This document shows positions 2 to 41,159 of a stretch of DNA of 64,000 nucleotides, piece by piece (the stretch's first letter is position 1; each line of letters begins with the position of its first letter). The notes beneath the pieces are model-generated. The model was given only the letters and a program-made list of their open reading frames with translations. It made no database searches and was not told the DNA's origin. The stretch is from Vulcanimicrobiota bacterium (GTDB taxonomy: Bacteria; Vulcanimicrobiota; Vulcanimicrobiia; Vulcanimicrobiales; Vulcanimicrobiaceae), in the NCBI GenBank assembly GCA_963723515.1, contig CAVRQT010000003.1, forward strand, positions 864,001 to 928,000. Reading direction: 5' to 3'. The translations under genes were made by a program, and so were the position numbers.

Positions 2-3000
2 GCACAATACGCGAGCTATTTGTTTCCGCAACTCGGTGCAAATCTTGGACTGCAGCATCTTGTTGCGGCGGCGCTCGCGATTGTGGTTTTGGTGTTGCTC
101 TATCGTCGCGTAACAACGGTGACGCTCATCGCAACCGCCCTTGCCATAACGGCGCTCATCACGCTTATCACCGTCATCGCAGCCGGCGCGCCTCATATTC
201 ATGCGGCTGCCTTCTCGTCCCCGAAGCCGCCGAATGCAAGCGCTTTTATGCTTGCGCTCGGGACGGCGCTCGTCATCACTCTCTATGACTATGCCGGTTA
301 CAATAGCGCAGCGCTCATCGGTGATGAGATCGTGGCGCCGGTGCGCACGATTCCGCGATCGATCGTGCTCTCAATTGCAATCATCGCGGCGCTCTACATC
401 CTGCTTCAGGTTTCTGTCTTGAGCGTTGTTCCTTGGCCACAGATTGTCGCTTCAAAATCACAATTCGTTGCTGCCAGCGCGATCGAAAACGTTTGGGGCG
501 CCGCCTCGGCGCGCGTGGTGACCGTACTGATCTTGATCACGGCGTTCGCCTCAACATATGGGGTTCTGCTCGGTTTTTCTCGCATTCCATATGCAGCGGC
601 ACTTGACGACGAATTCTTTCCTGTGTTCGGCCGACTCCATCCGCGCGGCCGATTTCCATATGTCTCGCTGCTGGTAATCGGGCTTTTGGCGATTCCAGCG
701 TGCTTTTTTACGCTTGATGCCGTCATCTCGTTTCTCATCGCGGGAATCGTGCTGATTCAATCGATCGCCCAGATCGCCGCCCTCTTGATCTTCCGAAGGC
801 GGGAAGGGGCGGCTCCGTTTAGCATGTGGCTCTTTCCGATCCCGGCGATCGTCGCGCTGCTCGCTTGGCTTTTCATCTTCTACTCTTCCGGAAAGAGCGC
901 GATGCTCTACGGAACGCTTACGTTGTTGGCGGGTGTCATCGCGTATCTGATCACGGCACGCGTTCAGCGACGGTGGCCGTTCTTGGTGACCGTGGCTCTC
1001 GTAGCGCTTTGCTGCACGGCCGGCCGGCCCGCAAACGCGGCAAGCTTCGGCTCGAGCGCCATCGTGCAGCGCAATGGTTATCCCATTTTCACCGTTGACG
1101 GTAAACCGTTCTTTATCTATGGCGCGGCGTTCTTTTACGAGCGCATTCCGCGGGGGCTCTGGCGACAATCGCTCGTGGCATACAAAGCGCTTGGAATCAA
1201 CACGATCGACCTCTACGTCATTTGGAATTGGCATGAATTGCACGACGGCGATTTTGATTTTACGGGACGCACGAATCCACGCCGCGATCTACGTGGACTT
1301 TTGCAGCTGATCCATCGTTTCGGATTTCATACGATTATCCGGCCCGGCCCCGTGATTCGCAATGAGTGGCGCAACGGCGGCTATCCGGCGTGGCTTCTGG
1401 AGCGCCCGGAATACAATATGCCGCTGCACGACGTGCTCGAAGGGCGCTATCCCGCAACGGCGACCTTGCAGAATGCGCATTCCGATCAAGCAGCCGCCGA
1501 ATGGATGAGCAACTCGACGCATCTCCGCTACGCCGATCGCTGGCTAAGACGTGCGTTGATGGAAGTCGCCCCGTGGGGACGAGATGTGCTTGCGATTGCG
1601 CTCGATGACGATCAAGGCGCGTATCTCAACAATCAAACGTGGCCCGCGGCAAATTTTCAAGCCTACCTTCATCATCTGGCCGGCACGGTGCGATCGGTGG
1701 CCGGGACATCGATTCCGCTCTTCATCAACACATATCAGATGAAGGTCACCGCGTCGGCGCCGGTTTGGGCGTGGGGCAACTGGTATCAAAGCGAGGCATA
1801 TCATCTCGGCGAGCACGACCGTCGCGAGTTAGAGTTTTCCACTGCGCTCCTTGCGACGCAACCGCATCTTCCCGTTATGCAGAGCGAATTTCAAGCCGGC
1901 TGGCTGCAGGGTCCCGATCAGGCGCATCCGCGGCGTGTTGCTCCGGAAAACACCGCACTTGCTTTACACACCTTGCTCCAGTCAGGGACGCGCGGCATCG
2001 TCAACTTTCCGGTTCAAGATACTGTCTATCCCAGCGGCTGGGAAGTGCCGTTTGCGAATGCCTCCTACGCCTGGGATGCGGCTCTCACACTCGACGGACG
2101 GCACAATGCACGGTACCGCCCGACGATGGAGTTCGGGCAGTTGATTTCCAAGTACGGAAGACTTCTCGCGCAGACACATCGCGTTGCGGACGCCGCGATT
2201 GCCTATACCGTTAGCGCGTATGACCCCTTACAACTCAACGATGTTCGGCTTGACCAGGCTGTTACCGCGACCCGCGACGCCCTCACGGATTGCCGCACTC
2301 TGCGCCTAAGCTGCGATCTCGTCGATTTGCGGTACGCAAAGGATCGCGACTTGGAGCCTTACCGCTACCTTGTCGTGCCTCTCGTCAACGCATTGCCGTT
2401 GCAAGCAGCGATCTCAGCGAAACTCAAGCGGCTTGCGCCGCGTGTGCATATCGTCAGCTCGGTCGTCGAGGTGCATCCAGCAAAGCGTGCGGTCAATATC
2501 GCCAATGCCGTATTAAGTGTCAGCAGCGGGAAAGAACCGTTCGGCTTTCTCGATATCGTCAATTACGATCTGCGGCCTCGCTCAACAGGGCCAATACGGA
2601 TGCAACTCACACCAGCCAAGCAAGTGCGTCTTCCATCGGTTCGCCTCGCGGGCGCATCCGGTCTGTTGATTCCGATCAATCTCAGGCCATCAGATGTTGC
2701 GCAAAAAATCGCGGCACGACCAAGCGGACCGCCGACGCAACGACCTTGCCTTCAACCAGCGGCGCTGCTCTTTGCCGGCATCTGTTGGCGACTGCCGCCG
2801 ATCCGTTCCACAGCAGCCGCTCCAAGTGTGCCAATCGCGCGCCGCGTCGATGTAACGCAAGACGGCGAACCGTGGATCCTCCTCGCGAACCCAACGGCCA
2901 CCCTTGGCATCGCCCCGTTAGCCGGTGCGCGAGCGTTCGTCTTTCAAAATGGCCAAAGCGATGCATTTACGTCCACCGGTGCACTGCGTGACGACGTTGA

Positions 3001-3580
3001 TCCCGCACCAACGCCGTCGGCCCGAGACTACATCAGCACGTACACACATCAATTTCCGGCCGGTACCTTCAATCGTGCCTATGACTGTCGGATTCTCAAG
3101 GATGGCGCTCAGACAGCGTGCATGTATTTCGCGCCCGACCTCGGCACGCACTTTGAGCGGGCGATCACCATGCAACCAAAATCGCCGGCCTTTACATTAC
3201 GACTGCGCATGACGTCATCGGACCCGAAAAAACGAGGCGTGTTGCTGAGTGCGCTTTCGATCTCGAGCGCACTATCGCAATTCGTATCAGGAGCAATCAG
3301 CCGCTACACAGCGGGGGCAACGACTCCCGTCATGGACGGCGCTTTTGGATTCTACGATCCGACGACGCGAAAAGTGGCAACGGTCTGCTGGCCGCCACAA
3401 GAGCCGTTACAAGTCAACGTCGATGAGAAACCGGACGCAGCGATCGTGCGAGTCGTCTACCCTCCGGACACTTGGCAGAGCATCACGTTCGGCTATTATG
3501 CGGTTGCTGATCTTACCCAAGCGCGCAGCGTTGTTCAAGAGCTAAAAGGACGCGCATGCGTCGACGCGAACGGGCGGTAA
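2..3580 (+). CDS. APC-family amino acid permease fused to a GH35-like glycoside hydrolase (5'-partial)
   Basis: Frame open from the window edge. Hydrophobic APC segment (YDYAGYN...GDEIVAP.RTIPRSI, SRIPYAAA.D..F...F..LHP) followed in frame by GH35 motifs (F.VDGKPF, GINTIDLYVIWNWHE..DGDFDFTG, IRPGPVIRNEW..GGYPAWL, SEFQAGW). Confidence 0.85.
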   Translation, partial: AQYASYLFPQLGANLGLQHLVAAALAIVVLVLLYRRVTTVTLIATALAITALITLITVIAAGAPHIHAAAFSSPKPPNASAFMLALGTALVITLYDYAGYNSAALIGDEIVAPVRTIPRSIVLSIAIIAALYILLQVSVLSVVPWPQIVASKSQFVAASAIENVWGAASARVVTVLILITAFASTYGVLLGFSRIPYAAALDDEFFPVFGRLHPRGRFPYVSLLVIGLLAIPACFFTLDAVISFLIAGIVLIQSIAQIAALLIFRRREGAAPFSMWLFPIPAIVALLAWLFIFYSSGKSAMLYGTLTLLAGVIAYLITARVQRRWPFLVTVALVALCCTAGRPANAASFGSSAIVQRNGYPIFTVDGKPFFIYGAAFFYERIPRGLWRQSLVAYKALGINTIDLYVIWNWHELHDGDFDFTGRTNPRRDLRGLLQLIHRFGFHTIIRPGPVIRNEWRNGGYPAWLLERPEYNMPLHDVLEGRYPATATLQNAHSDQAAAEWMSNSTHLRYADRWLRRALMEVAPWGRDVLAIALDDDQGAYLNNQTWPAANFQAYLHHLAGTVRSVAGTSIPLFINTYQMKVTASAPVWAWGNWYQSEAYHLGEHDRRELEFSTALLATQPHLPVMQSEFQAGWLQGPDQAHPRRVAPENTALALHTLLQSGTRGIVNFPVQDTVYPSGWEVPFANASYAWDAALTLDGRHNARYRPTMEFGQLISKYGRLLAQTHRVADAAIAYTVSAYDPLQLNDVRLDQAVTATRDALTDCRTLRLSCDLVDLRYAKDRDLEPYRYLVVPLVNALPLQAAISAKLKRLAPRVHIVSSVVEVHPAKRAVNIANAVLSVSSGKEPFGFLDIVNYDLRPRSTGPIRMQLTPAKQVRLPSVRLAGASGLLIPINLRPSDVAQKIAARPSGPPTQRPCLQPAALLFAGICWRLPPIRSTAAAPSVPIARRVDVTQDGEPWILLANPTATLGIAPLAGARAFVFQNGQSDAFTSTGALRDDVDPAPTPSARDYISTYTHQFPAGTFNRAYDCRILKDGAQTACMYFAPDLGTHFERAITMQPKSPAFTLRLRMTSSDPKKRGVLLSALSISSALSQFVSGAISRYTAGATTPVMDGAFGFYDPTTRKVATVCWPPQEPLQVNVDEKPDAAIVRVVYPPDTWQSITFGYYAVADLTQARSVVQELKGRACVDANGR

Positions 3581-31477: not shown

Positions 31478-32760
31478 CTAAACGGCTACCAATGAAAGCG
31501 TGCGCGGATCGGTGATCTTTCCGGCCAGTGCCGATGCGGCGCAGGTCGCCGGCGAAGCAAGGTAGATCTCCGCCTTAGGCGATCCCATCCGGCCGACGTA
31601 ATTGCGGTTCGTCGTCGAGATACAGCGCTCGCCGTCGCCGAGCGTTCCCATGTGGCCACCGAAGCACGCTCCGCAACCCGGCGTATTGACCGCGCAACCA
31701 GCGGCGACGAGCGTCTTGAGAATTCCCTCGTCCGCAGCTTGCATGTAGACTTTCTGCGAACCGGGATTGACGATCACGCGCAACGACGGCGCGATTCGCT
31801 TGCCCTCGAAGAATGCGCGCGACGATCCGCAAGTCTTCGATATATCCGTTCGTGCACGAACCGATGAAGACTTGATCGACCGCGACATCCTCTTTGACGT
31901 CGCTGATTGGATGAACGTTCTCGGGCAGATGCGGAAAAGCGATTTGCGGTTCAAGTGCGCCGATATCGATCTCAACGACGCGCTCGTACTGCGCATCCGG
32001 GTCCGCCTTCTCGATCGTAAACGGGCGATCTGTCCGCTCTTTCACGTATGCGATCGTCTTTTCGTCAGCGTGAAAGATGCCGTTCTTTGCACCGCACTCG
32101 ATCGCCATATTGGCCATCGTGATACGGCCTGTGATCGAAAGTTCGTCGACCGTTGTCCCGTGATACTCGATGGCGCGATAGGTTGCGCCGTCGATGCCAA
32201 GCGTGCCGACGGTCTTGAGCATGATATCTTTGGCGTAAACCATCGTCCCGGGGCGTGCCGCTATAGACGAGCTTGATCGATGCCGGCACCTTGAGCCAAA
32301 CTTCGCCAAGCGCGAACGCGGCTGCGACATCGGTAGATCCCATTCCCGTGGCGAAGGCGCCGAACGCTCCGTACGTGCAGGTATGTGAATCACCGCCAAC
32401 GATCAGCTCGCCAGGCGCAACGAGACCCTCTTCAGGCAATACGACGTGTTCGATTCCACCGCGACCCACGTCGAAGAAATTTTCGATCTGCTGTTCGGCG
32501 GCGAATTCTTTCATCAACTGCGCGAGTTTCGCGGATTGCGCGTTATTTGCCGGAACGAAGTGATCTTCAACGAGCGCAATCTTCGAGTGGTCGAAGACTC
32601 TTGTCGCGCCCTTGAGGTTTCGGAATGCAGCAATTGCGACCGCGGCCGAGAGTTCGTTCGCCAAGACGAGATCGACTTTGGCGTTGATGATTTCGCCAGG
32701 GGAGACTCGATCAAGGCCCGCGTGGCGCGCGAGAATTTTTTCGGTGAGCGTCATGCCCAT
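31478..32760 (-). CDS. leuC: 3-isopropylmalate dehydratase / homoaconitase-family large subunit (two frameshifts)
   Basis: TLTEKIL, DSHTCTYGA, GSCTNG, CGACFG, STTNRNY.GRMG. Confidence 0.88.
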
Positions 32761-32900
32761 GGAGCGAAGATCCTTTCGTTCGGAGGTTCCGGCTCTACCG
32801 TTTTACCCGCCGGCTCGCATGCCTCTCGGGCACGCTATGGAACCAATGACCGATGTGGCTATCCGTTTGTTTGCAGGCCCGCTTGCTCCGAGATTGACCG

Positions 32901-34023
32901 GTGAACCTCAGCATCGACTACCGCACTGAGGCGGCCGCGCTTGATGCCGAAATCCTGGCTACGATCGCCGAGGTGGCAAGAGGCCGACGTTTCAAGGACT
33001 GATGACCCCTTTTGTTCGCTTGCTTTGCGAATTTTTGCGCACCAGCTGCGCTATAATGCGCCGTATGCACGATTCTGCGCATCGCTAGGAGTGACGCCGG
33101 AAACATTGCCGGCTGGGTGGCAAGAGATTCCGGCCGTGCCGGTCAGCGCATTCAAAGATGCGACTCTTGCAACCTTTCCTCCGCAGAACGCCGATTTGCA
33201 GTTTGAGACGAGCGGTACGACCGTGGGGCGAACGGGGCCAGCATTTGATGGAAAACGCCGCGCTCTATCGTGCGTCACTCTTAGCCGGATTCGATCGCGC
33301 GATTCTTTCACAGGGTTCGGATTTACGCTATCTCAACATGTTGCCACGCTGGCGCGATAAACCGCAGTCATCGCTTTCGTACATGATGGAAGTCGTTACG
33401 CGAGAGCGCGGTGACGGCCGCGATGGCTGGTATGTCGATGACCAGGTTCCTGCGGTCGACGCGTTTATCAAAGATGTGCGATGCGCGATCGGCGGAAGCG
33501 GCCGCCGTTTGTATCACCGGCACCGCATTCATGCTGGTGATTCTTCTCGATGAGTTGCAGGCGCGAAAGGAGCGCTTTGAGCTGCCGCCTCGATCCCGCA
33601 TCATAGAGACCGGCGGCTTCAAAGGCCGCGCGAAGAGAAATCGAGCGCAGCGAATTTTACCGTCTTCTCGCAGATCGCTTCGGCATCGAAATCCAAGCCA
33701 TTATTGCGGAATACGGCATGACCGAGTTGACGAGCCAGTATTATGACTCGATCGAAAGCCGTCGGGACGCCGAACGCGTAAAAGTCTCGCCTCCATGGTT
33801 ACGCTGGCGTATCGTTGATCCACGCGGTCGCGATGTCACCGCTGGAGCGAAAGGAACGCTCGTCCACGTTGACCTCGCAAATCGCAGCTCCGCAATCGCG
33901 ATCGCGACCGACGACGTAGCGTACCAGAGCGGTGGCGGTTTTGTGATGTGCGGCCGCTCGAGCGACGCCGAGTTGCGCGGGTGCTCGCTGGACGCCGAGG
34001 AGTTATGGTCGAGCGTCCGCTGA
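32901..34023 (+). CDS. LuxE-like acyl-protein synthetase (several frameshifts)
   Basis: Fragments in order: AHQ...N..Y.RFC, IPAVP..AFK, FETSGTT, SSLSYM, ETGGFKGR, EYGMTELTSQYY, DLAN, ATDD, GR...AE.RGCS. Confidence 0.85.
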
Positions 34024-35238
34024 TCCGCGGCGCGCTGCGCCAGCTTCCCGCGACTGCGATTATCGAAGCGCTCGCTGCAAGCGCCCAAACGTGGGCCGAT
34101 CCGAGCTATCCGCCCCGCCGGCAATGCGCTCGGGCGATCGAAGCGAGAACCGGGTACTCGGCACCGGTCGTGCGATTTGCGCTCGATCAACTCTTTGCAT
34201 CGATCACCCGCCATTCATTAACGGCGACGATCTGCGCCGAAATTGGGAGCATCGATGCGCTCGATCGATTTGTCGCGCGCGACGGCCGCCCGGATGGCTT
34301 TGCAAAGGCCGTCGGCGAGGTATGCGTCATCGCGAGCCGGACGACGGTCGGCGTCGCGCTCCTGCCCGCACTCTATGCGCTCTGCGCAAAATGCGACGTC
34401 ACCGTCAAAGATCGTGAAGACAATCTTATCGCCGCATTCTTCCGCACATTGGAAGAGCATGATAAGTCGTTCGGGCATGCGGCGCACGCCGAAGCCTTCA
34501 GCTCGCATGACGTGCAGCCGGATTTTCTCCGCCGATTTTCGTGCGTCGTTGCTTTCGGCAACGATGACACGCTGGCTCACCTTCGCAATGCCTGCAATGC
34601 CGATGCACGCTTTGTCGGTTTTGGCTCGAGAGCCAGCGCGGGTTATATCTCGTCGGATGCGGCGCGATCTGGAACGCTGGATCAGCTGCTCGAGAACGCG
34701 GCGCTCGATGCGGTGCTCTACGAAACGGAAGGCTGCATGTCGCTGCACATGCTCCTTGTCGAAGGTGCTGACAACGCTAAGAAGTGTCGCGCAGCGCTTT
34801 GCGGCGGCCCTGAAAAACGCCGGTGAACTGTTCCCGCGCGGTGCGAAGGACGCTTTTGGTGAAGCGCGCTTCTTAGCCGCCCGCAACGCAGCTGCGTTTC
34901 GCGCATCGCTGGGTCAAGGCGCGGTTTTTGCGGGCGATGATTACGTCGTCATTTTGGATCCGCCGGCCGAACAGCCTCCGCCCTTCGCACCGCGATGCAT
35001 TCCCGTGATTGCGGTGGATGAACCGGGCGACGCGTTGCGCCGTTTCACGGACCACGGCATCGCACTCGAAGCGTTTGCGCTCTCCGACGAGCGGCCCGAT
35101 ATCGTGCAGATGGCACTCGAATCAGGTGCGGTTCGTCTCACGCGCTTCGGCGAGCTGCAAAAACCTTCACCGGCCGGCAATCATGGTGGCCGAGGCAGAA
35201 TCACAGATTTTATTCGCTGGATCGACCGCGAATTATGA
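34005..35238 (+). CDS. LuxC-like acyl-CoA/acyl-protein reductase (frameshift near 34783)
   Basis: VAFG.D.T, GFG.R.S, A.D..LYE..GCMS.H (catalytic Cys), G..R....G..Q.P....HGG; GAGGAG Shine-Dalgarno. Confidence 0.82.
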
Positions 35239-36515
35239 GCCCTGCATCTCCGGGACTGAAGTCGCAGCGGCTTGCAGCGCTGCTCGAGCGATACGGGTCT
35301 CGCGGCGCCCATGTCGCCACGCATTCGCCGATTTTCTGGGAGTCAGCGGAGGATGCGCGCATCATCGACGTTGATGGCAATGCCTACCTCGATCTGTGCG
35401 CGGCGTTCGGCGTCGCCGCGCTTGGGCATTCGAATCCGAACGTTGCAAGGGCTATCGGCGATCAGGCTGCTCGGCTGATGCACGCGATGGGCGATCTCTA
35501 TCCGGCCGGCCTGCTCGGGCAGTTGCTCGAAAAATTGGCTGAGATTTCGCCGGGCGACCTTTCAAAGAGCTTGCTCTGTTCGACAGGCACCGAAGCGGTG
35601 GAAGCGGCGCTCAAAACCGCGCTCCTATATAATGGAAGGCCTGGGATCATCGCCTTCAACGGCGCCTACCACGGCCTCTCGCTGGGCGCGCTCGAGGTTT
35701 GCGGGCTGCCCTTCTTTCGCAAGCCGTTCGAGCCGGCGTTAACGCATCGCGGCATCTTCTTCGATTATCCGCGCGCAGGTGGTCAATCAGCGGTGGATCG
35801 CACGATGACCGCGATTCGAGAGAAATTGCGGGACGATCGCGCGGTTGGCGCGCTGATCGTCGAGCCGATCCAAGGCCGCGGCGGCATCGTTCTGCCGCCG
35901 GACGGCTTCTTGCGGGCCCTGAGAGCGCTCTGCGACGAAGAGGGCGTCGTCCTGATCTTCGATGAGATCTACACCGGCTTGGGACGGACCGGCGCGTTCT
36001 TCGCCGCCCAACACGAGCAAGTCGTTCCCGATATCATGTGCGTCGGAAAAGCGCTCGGCAATGGATTTCCAATTTCAGCGGCAATTGCAAAGCCGCAGAT
36101 CATGGATGCATGGCCGGCGGCAGGCAGCGAAGCGCTGCACACTTCCACATTTCTCGGAAACCCGATGGGATGCGCGGCCGCTTTAGCAACAATTGATCAA
36201 CTCCAACGTCGTCGGCTTCCCGAACGGGCGCGCGAACTTGGCGAACGCGTCCAACACCGGCTCGAAACGCTACGCGGTAAGGATAGCGTTGTTGACGTTC
36301 GCGGGCGCGGACTCTTTTGGGGCGTGGAGATGCGCGATGTCCAGACCGCGCAAGCAATCGTCCAAGACGCTTTACGGCACAAGTTGATGGCCTTCGCCGA
36401 AGGCGCGGTCATCGCGATCATGCCGCCTTTAACGATTTCCGAGGAACGGCTCGATCAGGGGCTCGACATCTTAACGTCCGTGATCGCGGATTACGCCGTG
36501 ACGGGCACGCGATAG
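35235..36515 (+). CDS. class III PLP-dependent aminotransferase
   Basis: DVDGN.YLD, GTEAVEAALK, YHG, IVEPIQG, LIFDEIYTG.GRTG, GKALG.G, HTSTF.GNP, VRGRGL. Confidence 0.95.
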   Translation: MSPASPGLKSQRLAALLERYGSRGAHVATHSPIFWESAEDARIIDVDGNAYLDLCAAFGVAALGHSNPNVARAIGDQAARLMHAMGDLYPAGLLGQLLEKLAEISPGDLSKSLLCSTGTEAVEAALKTALLYNGRPGIIAFNGAYHGLSLGALEVCGLPFFRKPFEPALTHRGIFFDYPRAGGQSAVDRTMTAIREKLRDDRAVGALIVEPIQGRGGIVLPPDGFLRALRALCDEEGVVLIFDEIYTGLGRTGAFFAAQHEQVVPDIMCVGKALGNGFPISAAIAKPQIMDAWPAAGSEALHTSTFLGNPMGCAAALATIDQLQRRRLPERARELGERVQHRLETLRGKDSVVDVRGRGLFWGVEMRDVQTAQAIVQDALRHKLMAFAEGAVIAIMPPLTISEERLDQGLDILTSVIADYAVTGTR

Positions 36516-37539
36516 TGCTTTACAAAGTTGGCGTCGCCGGTGCCGGCTTCGGCGAGAAGGCGCACATCGCGGCGTACCAAGCGCATCCGGCGTTCGAAGT
36601 GGTCGCCGTTGCCTCGCCGCACTCGGCTCCACGCGTTGCGCGCGAACGGAACCTCAAGCACGCGTTCAAGAGCGTCGCTGAAATGCTCGAGCACGCCGAG
36701 CTCGACGTCGTCTCGATCGCCTCTCCTCCGTTTGCGCACCATGAAGATGTTCTCGCCGCGCTCGCCGCAAAAAAGCATGTCATTTGCGAGAAACCGTTCA
36801 CGCTGAGCGTCGCGCAAGCTGAAGAACTGACGAGCGCCGCAAGAAAAGCGGGAACGGCTTGCGGCATCATGCATGAGTTTCGGTGGGTGCCGCAGCGCCT
36901 TGCGATGCGTGAACTGATCGCGAACCGCCATCTGAGCCCGCTGCGTGAACTCGAAGTGACGCAGTTGAGCAGCAATCTGCGCGCCTCGGGCGACCGCAAG
37001 CGAAGTTGGTGGTTTCAGAAATCAAAAGGCGGCGGCCTCGCCGGTGCATTGCTATCCCATTTGATCGAACGGCGAATTGGCTCGTTGGGCAGCATCCTGT
37101 CCGCAGCACCGGCTATTTGAGGACCGCCAACGCTCGCCGGCACGATGCCGAGGGCCAGTTCACGAGTACCGTCGATGATGGGGCGTTCGCGATAATCGAC
37201 TATGGCGAAGGCTTGATCGGACGATTAACTGCAGACGGCACGTGCGCCGTTGACTCGTTTACGCTTGCCGCTCACGCGGAGAATCGAACCGTCGTCGCGA
37301 GCGGCCCCGGCATGGTCGAGAATCGCCTCTTCGCGGTCGACGCCGATGAAACGTCGGAGCTGGAGTGCACTCCAATGAAATACGCGCGCTTCGAATCGGT
37401 GCATCCAAACGTTCCACTCATTATGGAGCTGCTCGACGAGCTCGTCAAAGAGATTGAGAGCGGCAACAGCGCGCTGCCGACATTCGAGGATGGGCTTCAT
37501 ACGCAGCGCGTCCTCGAGTCGATCGGTTATCGCGCATAA
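36515..37539 (+). CDS. Gfo/Idh/MocA-family oxidoreductase (frameshift near 37065)
   Basis: VGVAGAGFG, DVV.IASPP..H, KHVICEKP, GGG.....SH..D, PTFEDG. Confidence 0.9.
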
Positions 37540-38774
37540 AATGTTGTCCAGAGCAGGCCCAGCGCTGCAACCGTAGCGCGCGATTGGATCAGTTCGCGCG
37601 AACCGCGCAGCAGCAGGCGCTGCGTCCGAACATCATCACCGCTCGCGATGCCAAGCCACACAAGACCAACCGGTTTCTCCGGCGTGCCGCCTTGCGGCCC
37701 GGCGATGCCCGTCGTTGCGATGCCGACATCCGCGCGCAAACGCAGGCGAACGCCGCGCGCCATTGCGCGGGCAACTTCAGCGCTGACCGCCCCAAATTCA
37801 GTCAACAACGACTCCGGCACATCTAATGCCTCCGCTTTGACCGCATCGGCGTAGGAAACAATACCGCCCAAGAACATCTGTGATGCGTTGGGGACACTTG
37901 TAACGCGCGCCGCGATGCGCCCGCCCGTGCACGATTCTGCAGCCGCTAGCGTCCGACGATCCGCGATGAAGCGCTTGACGAGAACTCCTTCGAGCGTCTC
38001 ATCATCCGTGCCGAAAATGTGACCGCCGAGACGTGTAACAATCGTCTGTTCGAGTGGCGCAATCGACCTTTGTGCACCGGAATCATCCGCCGCTTTCGCC
38101 GTGAGTTTGACGTCGCATCGAAAGTCGTGCGCCAGCACCGCGATCTTTGGATTCTCTTGCGACGCGAAGAGATCGCCGATGCGATGATCGATTTCAGACT
38201 CCGCGATTCCAATCGTGTGCAGTACGCGCGTCGTTATGCGGCTATGCAACGCAAAACGGGTCCGCAGCCAGGGAACGAGATGCTCGTCGAGCATCGGCAT
38301 CATCTCGTGCGGCACGCCCGGCATTGCCGCGACGAACTTTCCTTCCTTTGAAAAGGCGATAAAGCCGGCAGCCGTCCCATTCGGATTTGCAAGCGTCGTG
38401 GATCCGCGCGGAAGCAGCGCCTGTTTGCGATTGTTCTCACGCATCACTCGGCCCGAGCCCGCGAACACTCGCTCGATCTGACGAAGCGCGTCGTCGTTGA
38501 GTTCCATGTCGAGCTCAAGGGCATCACAAATCGCTTCCTTTGTCAGATCGTCGGTCGTCGGACCGAGGCCGCCCGAGGTGATGACGCCGTCGGCCCGAGC
38601 GAGCGCGTCTTCGATCGCCTTGCGGATCCGCGCGCGATTGTCGCCCACGGCGTGCGTCGCATAGACGTCCACGCCGTTCGATGCGAGCGCTCGGGCGATA
38701 TAGCCGGTATTCGTGTCGGTTAGCTGACCTAAGAGCAGCTCCGTGCCGACGGCAATGATTTCACATTGCGGCAT
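37527..38774 (-). CDS. cinA: competence/damage-inducible protein CinA (MoCF domain + NMN deamidase)
   Basis: VGTELLLG...DTN, GGLGPT.DD.T, AESCTGG, GAVS, TGIAGP.GG...KPVG. Confidence 0.95.
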   Translation of the reverse strand: MPQCEIIAVGTELLLGQLTDTNTGYIARALASNGVDVYATHAVGDNRARIRKAIEDALARADGVITSGGLGPTTDDLTKEAICDALELDMELNDDALRQIERVFAGSGRVMRENNRKQALLPRGSTTLANPNGTAAGFIAFSKEGKFVAAMPGVPHEMMPMLDEHLVPWLRTRFALHSRITTRVLHTIGIAESEIDHRIGDLFASQENPKIAVLAHDFRCDVKLTAKAADDSGAQRSIAPLEQTIVTRLGGHIFGTDDETLEGVLVKRFIADRRTLAAAESCTGGRIAARVTSVPNASQMFLGGIVSYADAVKAEALDVPESLLTEFGAVSAEVARAMARGVRLRLRADVGIATTGIAGPQGGTPEKPVGLVWLGIASGDDVRTQRLLLRGSRELIQSRATVAALGLLWTTFYAR

Positions 38775-39391: not shown

Positions 39392-40243
39392 CTAAAAATC
39401 CACTGGTCGGAGGTAAAATTCGTTGATGGCGGTGTTCGAGAGCATCGCCGTCGTCGGAAGATGGCGCTTCCAATGTGTTCCTTCGACGCGCTCGCGCACG
39501 AGCTTGATTTCATCCGCGGCAAATCCGCGTTCGCGCAATTGTGCGTCGCCGTAGCCCAGCAGCATTTGGGAAAGAATCGCGTCGGCGCGTGAGTAGGTGA
39601 TTCCCAAATCGCCCTCGTCGGTCTGATTCGCCTCGAGATCCGCACTGGGCGCCTTATCGATCAGCGGCTCCGGCACACCTAAGTAGCGCGCGAGCTCCCA
39701 AACCTGCGTCTTGAAAAGATCGCCTAGTGGATTGAGTGGCGGCGAATCGTCCGCGTGCCACGTGAAATACCCGAGAAGCCGCTCGGTTTTGTTTCCCGTT
39801 CCAACCGGCAGCGCGCGCAATTTCGATGATTGGTCGAAGAGGATCAGCATGCGCATGCGCGCCATCACGTTGCCGCGTCGCCGGCCATCCGCCTCGGGTT
39901 CGAATTGCAAGTAGCCGTCGACCGCAGCGCTGATATCAACCGTCCGGCATTTCAACCCTAAGGCATCGATGACCAGCTGCGCGTCCGTCAGGCTTTGAGG
40001 ACTCGAAGTGCGATACGGCATCCGGATCGCATAGACGTTACGCGACCCCAGAGCGCGCGCGCAAAGATATGCCGTGACCGCTGAATCAACACCTCCGCTA
40101 AGCCCGATGACCGCGCGATCGATGCCGCGCCGCTCGATCAATTCATCTTGCAGAAACGCTTCAAGCCAGCTGGCCGCGACGGGCGCGTTGATCGTCGGCC
40201 CAAGCTCTTGAATCCGCGCGTGCGCTTCAATGACTGGCAGCAT
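39392..40243 (-). CDS. nadE: NAD+ synthetase, synthetase subunit
   Basis: GLSGGVDS, GNVMAR.RM, GTGNKTE, LGDLFKTQV, K.PSADL...QTDE. Confidence 0.95.
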   Translation of the reverse strand: MLPVIEAHARIQELGPTINAPVAASWLEAFLQDELIERRGIDRAVIGLSGGVDSAVTAYLCARALGSRNVYAIRMPYRTSSPQSLTDAQLVIDALGLKCRTVDISAAVDGYLQFEPEADGRRRGNVMARMRMLILFDQSSKLRALPVGTGNKTERLLGYFTWHADDSPPLNPLGDLFKTQVWELARYLGVPEPLIDKAPSADLEANQTDEGDLGITYSRADAILSQMLLGYGDAQLRERGFAADEIKLVRERVEGTHWKRHLPTTAMLSNTAINEFYLRPVDF

Positions 40244-41159
40244 CGATCGCTCGCCGCGGAAGCGGCAATTCCTCATCAAGCAGCAAGTCCGGTAAGGCCG
40301 AGGAGAGATCTCCCAGCAACGGCAAACCGGCGCGCGCGATGTCCACTTCGTCGAGATCGACTTTCGCGCGCAAGATGCACGGCCCAAGCGGAGGCGCCTG
40401 CACGACAACCTTTCCGCGCGGGTCGATGACGCACGATGAACCGGTCATACCTTTGCCGCCTTCAAAACCTGTCAAACCGGCGTAGAAAATGAAGACGCCG
40501 TGTTCGCTCGCGGCATTACTCAATAGAGAGCGCCAAACCGTCAGACTCTCCAATTCATTGTTTTCATGGGCCTCGACGCCGCGACCGGGCGCCGCGCTTG
40601 GAACGATCAAACAGCGCGCCCCTTTGATGGCAGCGATCGTCGGCATGATGCTGTGCCAAATGTCTTCGCAGATCAGCAACGCCATCGGACCGAAACGTGT
40701 TTGGAAAACGCCGAGGCGCCGCCCACGCGAGAGAAACCGTTCTTCATCGAAGACGCCGTACGTCGGCAAGAACATCTTTCGATGCACGTGCAAGATGTGA
40801 TGCCTTTGCGCATCGACCTGCGTGTAGAGGGCGCTGTTGTAATACGTCCCCGAATCATTCTCATAGAATCCGGCGGCAATGTCGACCGCGGCTTTCGAAC
40901 CGGCCTTCTTCCATGCATCGGCCAAATCGCCGGCGACCGCATCAGCGCTGCGGGCCAGATCGAAAACCGCACCTTCGAGAAAGTAACCGGAAAGCGCCGC
41001 CTCCGGCAGCACGATCAAATCGGGCGCGTCGGCGGCGAGCTGCCTGAACACTTCTCGAACATCCGCGAGATTTCGTTCGTAGTCGCCCTTGTGGGGTTTG
41101 AGCTGAACGATGGCCACATCGCACTGCCGCGATGCGCCGGGCACGCGATCAGCCGGCAC
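40227..41159 (-). CDS. nitrilase-fold carbon-nitrogen hydrolase, probable glutaminase subunit of NAD synthetase
   Basis: E-K-C triad: LPEA.LSGY, HRK.FLPTYGVFDE.R, LICEDIW; overlaps nadE. Confidence 0.88.
   Translation of the reverse strand: MPADRVPGASRQCDVAIVQLKPHKGDYERNLADVREVFRQLAADAPDLIVLPEAALSGYFLEGAVFDLARSADAVAGDLADAWKKAGSKAAVDIAAGFYENDSGTYYNSALYTQVDAQRHHILHVHRKMFLPTYGVFDEERFLSRGRRLGVFQTRFGPMALLICEDIWHSIMPTIAAIKGARCLIVPSAAPGRGVEAHENNELESLTVWRSLLSNAASEHGVFIFYAGLTGFEGGKGMTGSSCVIDPRGKVVVQAPPLGPCILRAKVDLDEVDIARAGLPLLGDLSSALPDLLLDEELPLPRRAIDAASH

Follow-up and report, generated by a model that had tools for sequence, protein, structure and literature searches.

A LuxE-like, LuxC-like and class III aminotransferase gene trio in Vulcanimicrobiota as a candidate replacement for QueC and QueF in queuosine biosynthesis

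The best protein matches bear names that point to the Vulcanimicrobiota/Eremiobacterota, family Baltobacteraceae or Vulcanimicrobiaceae. The 64,000-nucleotide stretch analyzed here (the window; Vulcanimicrobiota bacterium, assembly GCA_963723515.1, contig CAVRQT010000003.1) contains four co-oriented genes on the forward strand, which lie where a preliminary description of the sequence had placed them: a LuxE-like acyl-protein synthetase (32901..34023), a LuxC-like acyl-thioester reductase with the aldehyde dehydrogenase (ALDH) fold (34005..35238), an intact class III pyridoxal phosphate (PLP)-dependent aminotransferase (AT; 35235..36515) of a distinct subfamily, and a Gfo/Idh/MocA oxidoreductase (Gfo; 36515..37539). 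Comparative analysis of the first three genes (hereafter the trio) suggests that they function in the biosynthesis of the tRNA modification queuosine. The junctions and motifs that had been reported were likewise recovered: the ATG of the luxC-like gene at 34005 lies inside the luxE-like gene, whose TGA ends at 34023 (an overlap of 19 nucleotides), followed by ATGA at 35235 and TAGTG at 36513; the LuxE-like protein contains TSGTT (~33208), EYGMTE (~33709) and a C-terminal RGCS (Cys at ~33982), and the LuxC-like protein GCMS (Cys at ~34734). Pfam matches are strongest for the AT (Aminotran_3, E 5.7e-104) and Gfo (GFO_IDH_MocA, E 5.3e-27), followed by two fragments of the LuxC-like gene (LuxC, 2.6e-23 and 6.7e-8) and a single fragment of the LuxE-like gene with a weak match (LuxE, E 0.008). 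The lack of a luciferase noted earlier extends beyond the window, as PF00296 (Bac_luciferase; luxA/luxB) has no match in the whole 2.1-Mb, 88%-complete assembly. The LuxD family was found neither among 53 open reading frames or fragments of the window (17 + 36, a subset of its open reading frames) nor in the clusters of related loci, no genome-wide LuxD search having been made.

Adjacent luxE, luxC and AT genes are present in 32 of 35 loci of relatives, covering all three families (f1, f2 and f3) of the class, which argues that the arrangement is not due to chance; of the three exceptions, one (L050, genome G018) lacks the AT and the other two are loci that stop short of it. Eight further loci of the class all contain the trio. 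Three unpublished genomes (G020, G022 and G036) are among those counted, and the result is independent of them. The Gfo gene follows the trio in f1, weakly in f2 and in 0/11 loci of f3; it occurs in only one of 80 distant loci, as a single weak match, and its EKP lysine is lost in 3 of 16 aligned copies. The conserved core is thus the three-gene unit luxE-luxC-AT, and Gfo is probably an order-restricted operon mate outside it. On these observations, the four-gene core of the preliminary description is rejected.

Multiple sequence alignments show that the cysteines expected to carry thioesters are invariant, namely the C-terminal GCS Cys of the LuxE-like protein in 22/22 aligned relatives and the GC(L/M)S Cys of the LuxC-like protein in 25/25. 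The former aligns with Cys364 of P. phosphoreum LuxE (7xc6_E, E 1.1e-31), and a profile of distant LuxC-like homologues matches 7xc6_A (E 2.1e-60). The pair thereby combines the features of LuxE/LuxC-type reductases, that is, a C-terminal LuxE Cys, a LuxC catalytic Cys, and the P-loop and EYG motifs. Intact relatives fall short of the NCBIfam cut-offs for the Lux equivalogs (47.5 of 550 bits for LuxE; 36.3 of 750 bits for LuxC). The predicted model of the LuxE-like protein (predicted local distance difference test, pLDDT, 89.8) assumes an ANL/PaaK-type fold, and its closest folds are PaaK-type ligases, ClxA and EhpF, which activate aryl or heteroaryl acids, although a shared fold is no proof of function.

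The AT is characterized by the subfamily motifs YHGL, EPxQGRGG, DEIYTG and EALHTST, with a PLP Lys that is invariant in 24/24 aligned rows; its model (pLDDT 91.3) adopts the fold of γ-aminobutyrate (GABA) aminotransferases and has putrescine aminotransferase among its top folds. Relative to the GABA/ornithine type, the active site has YHGL for YHGR, QGRGG for QGEGG and DEIY for DEVQ. The HGL and the QGRGG-type Arg are invariant in the 24 rows and no Arg precedes the PP motif, so that the AT has neither the HGRT Arg nor the Glu/Arg switch of GABA/ornithine-type enzymes; it also scores below every NCBIfam cut-off. In E. coli GabT numbering, the equivalent changes are Arg141 to Leu, Glu211 to Arg, Gln242 to Tyr and Arg398 to Ser/Ala. 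The YHGR Arg presumably binds the substrate carboxylate in GABA and ornithine aminotransferases, and QGEGG...R presumably constitutes their Glu/Arg switch. The missing carboxylate-binding Arg would fit an uncharged aldehyde substrate and, if these residue roles are correct, the active site argues against an omega-amino-acid product. With thioester cysteines and PLP lysine invariant and gene order conserved, the preliminary description appears to have been right in its general chemistry, a carrier-free acid-to-aldehyde-to-amine module without luciferase. As judged from sequence, the trio would work like LuxE/LuxC combined with a class III transaminase, while being a member of neither the lux nor the tam systems.

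The standard queuosine route (PMC5372724, PMC13740343) proceeds from FolE or FolE2 via QueD and QueE to 7-carboxy-7-deazaguanine (CDG), via QueC and QueF to preQ1, and then via TGT, QueA and QueG. The genome studied here encodes FolE2, queD-queE, QueA and QueG; its QueE has QueE models as best match, yet falls below their cut-offs. QueC, QueF and the YhhQ salvage transporter were not found in this assembly, and matches to the Pfam QueC model in the class were rejected as QueC, being cross-matches of MnmA and NadE only. FolE type IA was detected in 0/5 genomes, an absence accounted for by FolE2, which is present in 29/29 class genomes tested. YhhQ exceeded its cut-off in 0/5 genomes, other importer families not having been searched, and the loss of queD and queE typical of salvage is not seen (queD kept in 5/5 genomes, queE in 70/70). 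Of the eight TGTs read from the class, seven retain the Cys of the preQ1 type and the GGLSVGE motif. Beside the main queA there is a second, weaker QueA-like gene in this genome (G000:C3:1079954-1080911, broken) and in a relative (G030:C18:72988-74001).

The phylogenetic profile of the trio is complementary to that of QueC and QueF. A draw of 121 genomes from the same phylum comprised 70 with a strong LuxE-like gene, all of this class and all with a single copy, and 51 with at most a distant match. The 70 carriers have QueE (70/70) and TGT (68/70), with QueC over its cut-off in 0/70 and QueF in 0/70. The non-carriers have QueE in 18/51, QueC in 22/51 and QueF in 8/51, and all 18 with QueE also have QueC. 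A second gap, preQ0 to preQ1, is seen among these non-carriers (e.g. G048, G054, G058 and G063): 14 of the 22 with QueC lack QueF, nearly all of them with TGT.

Genomes from other phyla came from a scan with distant LuxC-like proteins (80 loci) and from draws of Nitrospirota and Methylomirabilota. The 79 genomes compared were picked blind to Que genes, except for five whose QueC result was already known. They included all 10 Methylomirabilota carriers and the first 20 of 41 non-carriers of that draw, the 3 Nitrospirota matches with 8 of the 58 Nitrospirota non-carriers, and 37 of the 80 LuxC-like loci. Of the genomes compared, 22 are of the trio type (10 Methylomirabilota, 3 Nitrospirota and 9 Binatia), with the AT at the locus in 20 and a contig end in the other 2; QueE is present in 21, QueC over its cut-off in 0 and strong QueF in 0. 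By comparison, QueE occurs in 17 of the 28 Methylomirabilota and Nitrospirota non-carriers, 16 of these with QueC and 15 with strong QueF. The same gap (QueE in 9/10, no QueC, no strong QueF) is seen in ten genomes that have luxE/luxC but no AT at the locus, nine from Gemmatimonadota and one from Dehalococcoidia. The gap is absent from 17 genomes whose luxE/luxC loci are of a type without AT, among which only 5 Bacilli have QueE, in every case together with QueC and QueF. QueC-like and QueF genes are also present in two genomes of Nitrospirota in which the LuxE match is weaker and no luxC lies nearby.

Gene neighborhoods provide further contextual connections. In 8 Methylomirabilota genomes, representing one lineage, queG precedes AT-luxE-luxC, while in L076 luxE-luxC is preceded by a queE whose product passes its cut-off. 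A metagenome scan with the AT subfamily of this genome recovered 80 loci, 15 of or near the subfamily and 65 with ordinary ATs; luxE or luxC is present in 7/15 of the former, and luxE/luxC or que genes in 0/65 of the latter. In the metagenome locus L248, overlapping genes in the order AT-luxE-luxC-queD-queE form one operon; its AT has the motifs of this subfamily and is 39% identical to that of this genome, and its QueD and QueE have their own models as best match, below cut-off. In L242, queE immediately precedes the AT and luxE-luxC are located 3.5 kb further on; the que match passes its cut-off. Rfam searches of 12 distant loci detected no preQ1 riboswitch. A further locus, L211 (4885-10631, G066), in which a distant luxE and a long luxC-like gene are divergent from queE, was not counted, because it belongs to a different subfamily (48 bits), G066 has QueC, and a similar locus of G103 (L214) lacks queE.

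Given that the gap between QueE and TGT, from CDG to preQ1, is exactly an acid-to-amine conversion, we propose CDG as the substrate of the trio, which is probably not a fatty acid; the profile and the gene neighbors favor this conversion over the synthesis of a fatty or aryl amine. It appears quite likely, from these comparisons, that the trio replaces QueC and QueF by converting CDG via 7-formyl-7-deazaguanine to preQ1. CDG would be made by FolE2, QueD and QueE, whose genes are present. By analogy with LuxE, the LuxE-like enzyme would adenylate CDG with ATP and load the acyl group onto its own C-terminal Cys; transfer to the Cys of the LuxC-like protein and reduction with NAD(P)H would release 7-formyl-7-deazaguanine, which the AT would convert to preQ1. 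TGT, QueA and QueG, the genes for which are present (tgt only in relatives), would complete queuosine, with Gfo as an operon passenger or accessory. Also likely, if put a shade more cautiously, is the wider reading that preQ1 is made by a second route that bypasses the nitrile preQ0, recruited its AT at least twice, and would be used by whole classes in several phyla.

Several observations weigh against this proposal. The split within the phylum follows the class boundary and amounts to one event, relatives not being independent, and only about five lineages were sampled overall. Within the class, no que gene adjoins the trio: the distance to queG is ~33 kb, and queD-queE are 15-19 kb from the trio in f3 and on another contig in this genome. 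Two unrelated AT subfamilies serve the trio across loci, this AT subfamily occurs without luxE/luxC nearby in L238, L243, L244 and L246, the operon of G018 lacks an AT, and the Gemmatimonadota (QueE in 8/9, no QueC or QueF) have none at the locus, which was the only region searched. In this assembly tgt was not found; its usual neighbors rluD, lspA and yggS are also missing, which suggests an assembly gap. The one TGT read from f3 has Val at the Cys158 position, a change that lowers preQ1 affinity in the Z. mobilis enzyme, where the Km increases by a factor of more than ten (PMC3660597). QueC-like proteins below cut-off (63-107 bits) occur in 9/22 trio-type genomes and 2/70 class genomes. Two from Nitrospirota (L162:2907-3740 and L164:3061-3828; ~79 bits against a cut-off of 150) are full length and keep the PGRN and zinc CxxCxxC motifs, one of them beside a QueD-like gene; these genomes may therefore possess a divergent QueC. 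Finally, weak matches to the QueF model (28-31 bits), which we read as T-fold cross-matches, occur in four trio-type or Gemmatimonadota genomes. Another sub-cut-off QueC-like protein, that of G266, is encoded within a defence-like cluster.

The trio might instead yield a small primary amine that has nothing to do with queuosine, whether fatty, aryl or other, by TamA/TamH-like chemistry; a fatty or aryl amine was among the products envisaged in the preliminary description. Such an amine would agree with the nearest solved sequence relatives being the fatty-acid reductases LuxE/LuxC and with the conversion of fatty acids to amines by TamA and TamH (PMC9594044), and the lost carboxylate-binding Arg of the AT, with putrescine aminotransferase among its top folds, also suits a fatty aldehyde. 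Such a product leaves the exact fill of the QueC/QueF gap and the que neighbors unexplained, however; the trio has no conserved neighbors encoding LuxD, an acyl carrier protein (ACP), an exporter or tailoring enzymes, the folds nearest to the LuxE-like protein activate aryl or heteroaryl acids, and a trio gene present as a single copy in 70/70 class genomes resembles a housekeeping gene. With profile and neighbors pointing from CDG to preQ1, an amine of this kind is very unlikely. The omega-amino-acid alternative would have the module replace ProB/ProA and ArgB/ArgC/ArgD on a path from glutamate via the semialdehyde to ornithine, with Gfo providing the missing reduction of pyrroline-5-carboxylate in place of ProC. 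One part of it holds: with E. coli queries, tblastn detected no proB, proA, proC, argB, argC, argE or argG in this assembly, although the argB, argC, argG, argH, argI and proC queries do detect orthologues in other loci. Against it, argH and argI have paralogue-level matches only (27-33%), so that ornithine could not be carried on to arginine; FHGRT-type aminotransferases of its own are encoded by the genome; the AT of the trio lacks the ornithine/GABA carboxylate Arg; Gfo is absent from f3 and other phyla; and arg/pro genes adjoin the trio in no fetched locus. This path is even less likely than the fatty or aryl amine, and the missing genes would reflect either Arg/Pro auxotrophy or missing sequence. 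A corresponding lysine route is rejected, since dapA, dapB and lysA are present in the assembly. A keyword search of the V. alpinum paper (PMC9758169) and 6 supplements returned nothing on arginine, proline or queuosine.

If the substrate is CDG, the product might nonetheless be something other than tRNA queuosine, such as 7-formyl- or 7-hydroxymethyl-deazaguanine or another deazapurine, with preQ1 obtained through an importer. This would explain the same que linkage, give Gfo an aldehyde to reduce, and suit the Gemmatimonadota loci without an adjacent AT. QueA requires the aminomethyl group, and the retention of TGT, QueA and QueG, the preQ1-type TGTs (7/8), the absence of YhhQ (5/5) and the status of the AT as the most faithful partner of the trio all speak for preQ1, rendering another deazapurine the least probable of these products, and highly improbable. 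A different possibility, compatible with conversion of CDG to preQ1 and concerning this genome only, is that its copy of the trio is decaying. Six frameshifts are spread over the four genes: four in the luxE-like gene (~32990, ~33240, ~33480 and ~33630), one in the luxC-like gene (near 34790-34820), one in gfo (near 37069) and none in the AT gene. The luxE-like gene thus has 4 in 1.1 kb against 5 in ~10 kb of 11 other genes checked (a Poisson tail of ~0.003, calculated by hand and uncorrected), and the failure to find tgt could be counted in the same direction. Flanking and essential genes are broken in the same manner, however (leuC with two frameshifts, prfA with one, folE2 in two pieces); the identity of the LuxE-like protein to relatives (46-56%) is about equal to that among the relatives themselves, with all catalytic motifs intact, and the region missing with tgt also lacks lspA, which points to an assembly gap over decay. 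Because each of the other 69 genomes of the class has a LuxE-like match that runs essentially full length in a single frame (with one internal stop in 2), the frameshifts are likely long-read errors, and decay is unlikely, although less so than any of the alternative products.

A quick tree of 56 LuxC-like proteins, based on a quick search and rooted at the midpoint, groups the type without AT into a single derived clade (21 rows, support 80) that excludes the lineages showing the Que gap. In a sister clade without AT (L089, L100, L116, L120, L126 and related loci), luxE/luxC occur with a short-chain dehydrogenase/reductase (SDR) and an NMT1/THI5 ABC importer, a nucleobase permease or an SSS transporter. 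These loci adjoin thiE/thiO/thiG/thiD, and TPP riboswitches are present in L089 and L116; the clade probably represents an acid-to-alcohol thiamine salvage route. Given this association with thiamine genes and TPP riboswitches, this LuxE/LuxC branch plausibly handles heteroaromatic acids. A search for LuxE fusions with a Que domain or an AT recovered 14 longer proteins (P0271-P0284), fused only to LuxC or alcohol dehydrogenase, which is weak evidence. Three of these fusions are with a zinc alcohol dehydrogenase, and such a dehydrogenase apparently lies just upstream of luxE in L097 and L124.

The operon is flanked upstream by a divergent leuC (31478..32760, reverse strand), identified by Pfam scan and comparison with relatives, and downstream by a convergent cinA (37527..38774, reverse strand; open reading frame list and Pfam scan), which overlaps the end of gfo. 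Between leuC and luxE, most family relatives carry metY and a CoA-binding gene; no copy of either was found in this genome, where the corresponding gap of the window is 32760-32901. The luxE/luxC gap holds insertions in L025, L047, L049 and L052. An Rfam scan detected only tRNAs in the window and no match in five relative loci. Elsewhere in the window, a nitrilase-family gene (39392-41159, reverse strand) lies directly before nadE, an arrangement kept in relatives, and the two likely constitute a split glutamine-dependent NAD synthetase. A 1186-residue frame at 20-3577 (forward strand) joins an amino-acid permease to a GH35 domain, as either a real fusion or a frameshift artefact.

No description of a LuxE/LuxC/AT route to preQ1 was found in the literature covered, mostly at the level of abstracts and exclusive of the main 2024 7-deazaguanine review and subscription journals. 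If the proposal is true, it closes a hole in a well-studied tRNA-modification pathway, that of genomes that lack queC/queF while keeping queD, queE, tgt, queA and queG; bacteria now read as having a broken pathway would make queuosine de novo, which would change predictions of which bacteria make it and supply other organisms. It would also provide a function for a large LuxE/LuxC branch that is still unannotated (1,338 clusters matched at E up to 1e-30, though not every one belongs to this type), imply that LuxE/LuxC proteins are widely used in core metabolism as carrier-free reductases of heteroaromatic acids, and furnish a carrier-free acid-to-amine enzyme set for such acids.

Among known systems, the AT shares the class III fold and the PLP Lys and Asp with GABA, acetylornithine and putrescine aminotransferases, and differs from them in its altered active-site residues and in falling below every NCBIfam cut-off. 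The LuxE-like model superimposes on EhpF with Z 22.7 and rmsd 3.9 over 306 aligned residues at 12% identity. EhpG, the partner of EhpF, is said to make the aldehyde in phenazine synthesis. EhpF/EhpG of phenazine griseoluteic acid (PDB 3HGU/3L2K; PMC3175449 and PMC11278526) resemble the first two genes of the trio in pairing a small ANL enzyme with an adjacent ALDH-family gene and, on the reading proposed here, in acting on a heteroaromatic carboxylate, but belong to secondary metabolism and have no aminotransferase. TamA/TamH of tambjamine YP1 likewise combine adenylation, thioester reduction and class III transamination to yield a primary amine (PMC9594044), and TabE is reported to cluster with LuxC in a preprint (bioRxiv 10.1101/2025.08.11.669332). 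Unlike these enzymes, which use an ACP carrier and fatty acids in a natural-product cluster, the trio is carrier-free, single-copy and housekeeping-like, and consists of separate proteins of ~370, 405 and 426 residues with neither a carrier domain nor a TA-TR fusion. With LuxC-LuxE of luminous bacteria, whose P. phosphoreum complex adenylates the acid, transfers it from one Cys to the other and reduces it to the aldehyde (PDB 7XC6; PMC12041015), the trio shares the two families, gene order, thioester cysteines and, presumably, acid-to-aldehyde conversion without CoA or carrier protein; it is distinguished by scores far below the NCBIfam cut-offs, the lack of a luciferase, the AT that follows, and a substrate that is probably heteroaromatic. 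Finally, the trio and QueC + QueF (PMC5372724, PMC13740343) would perform the same conversion of CDG to preQ1 at the same place between QueE and TGT; they are unrelated in sequence, and the trio would proceed through a thioester, an aldehyde and transamination rather than through an amide, the nitrile preQ0 and ammonia.

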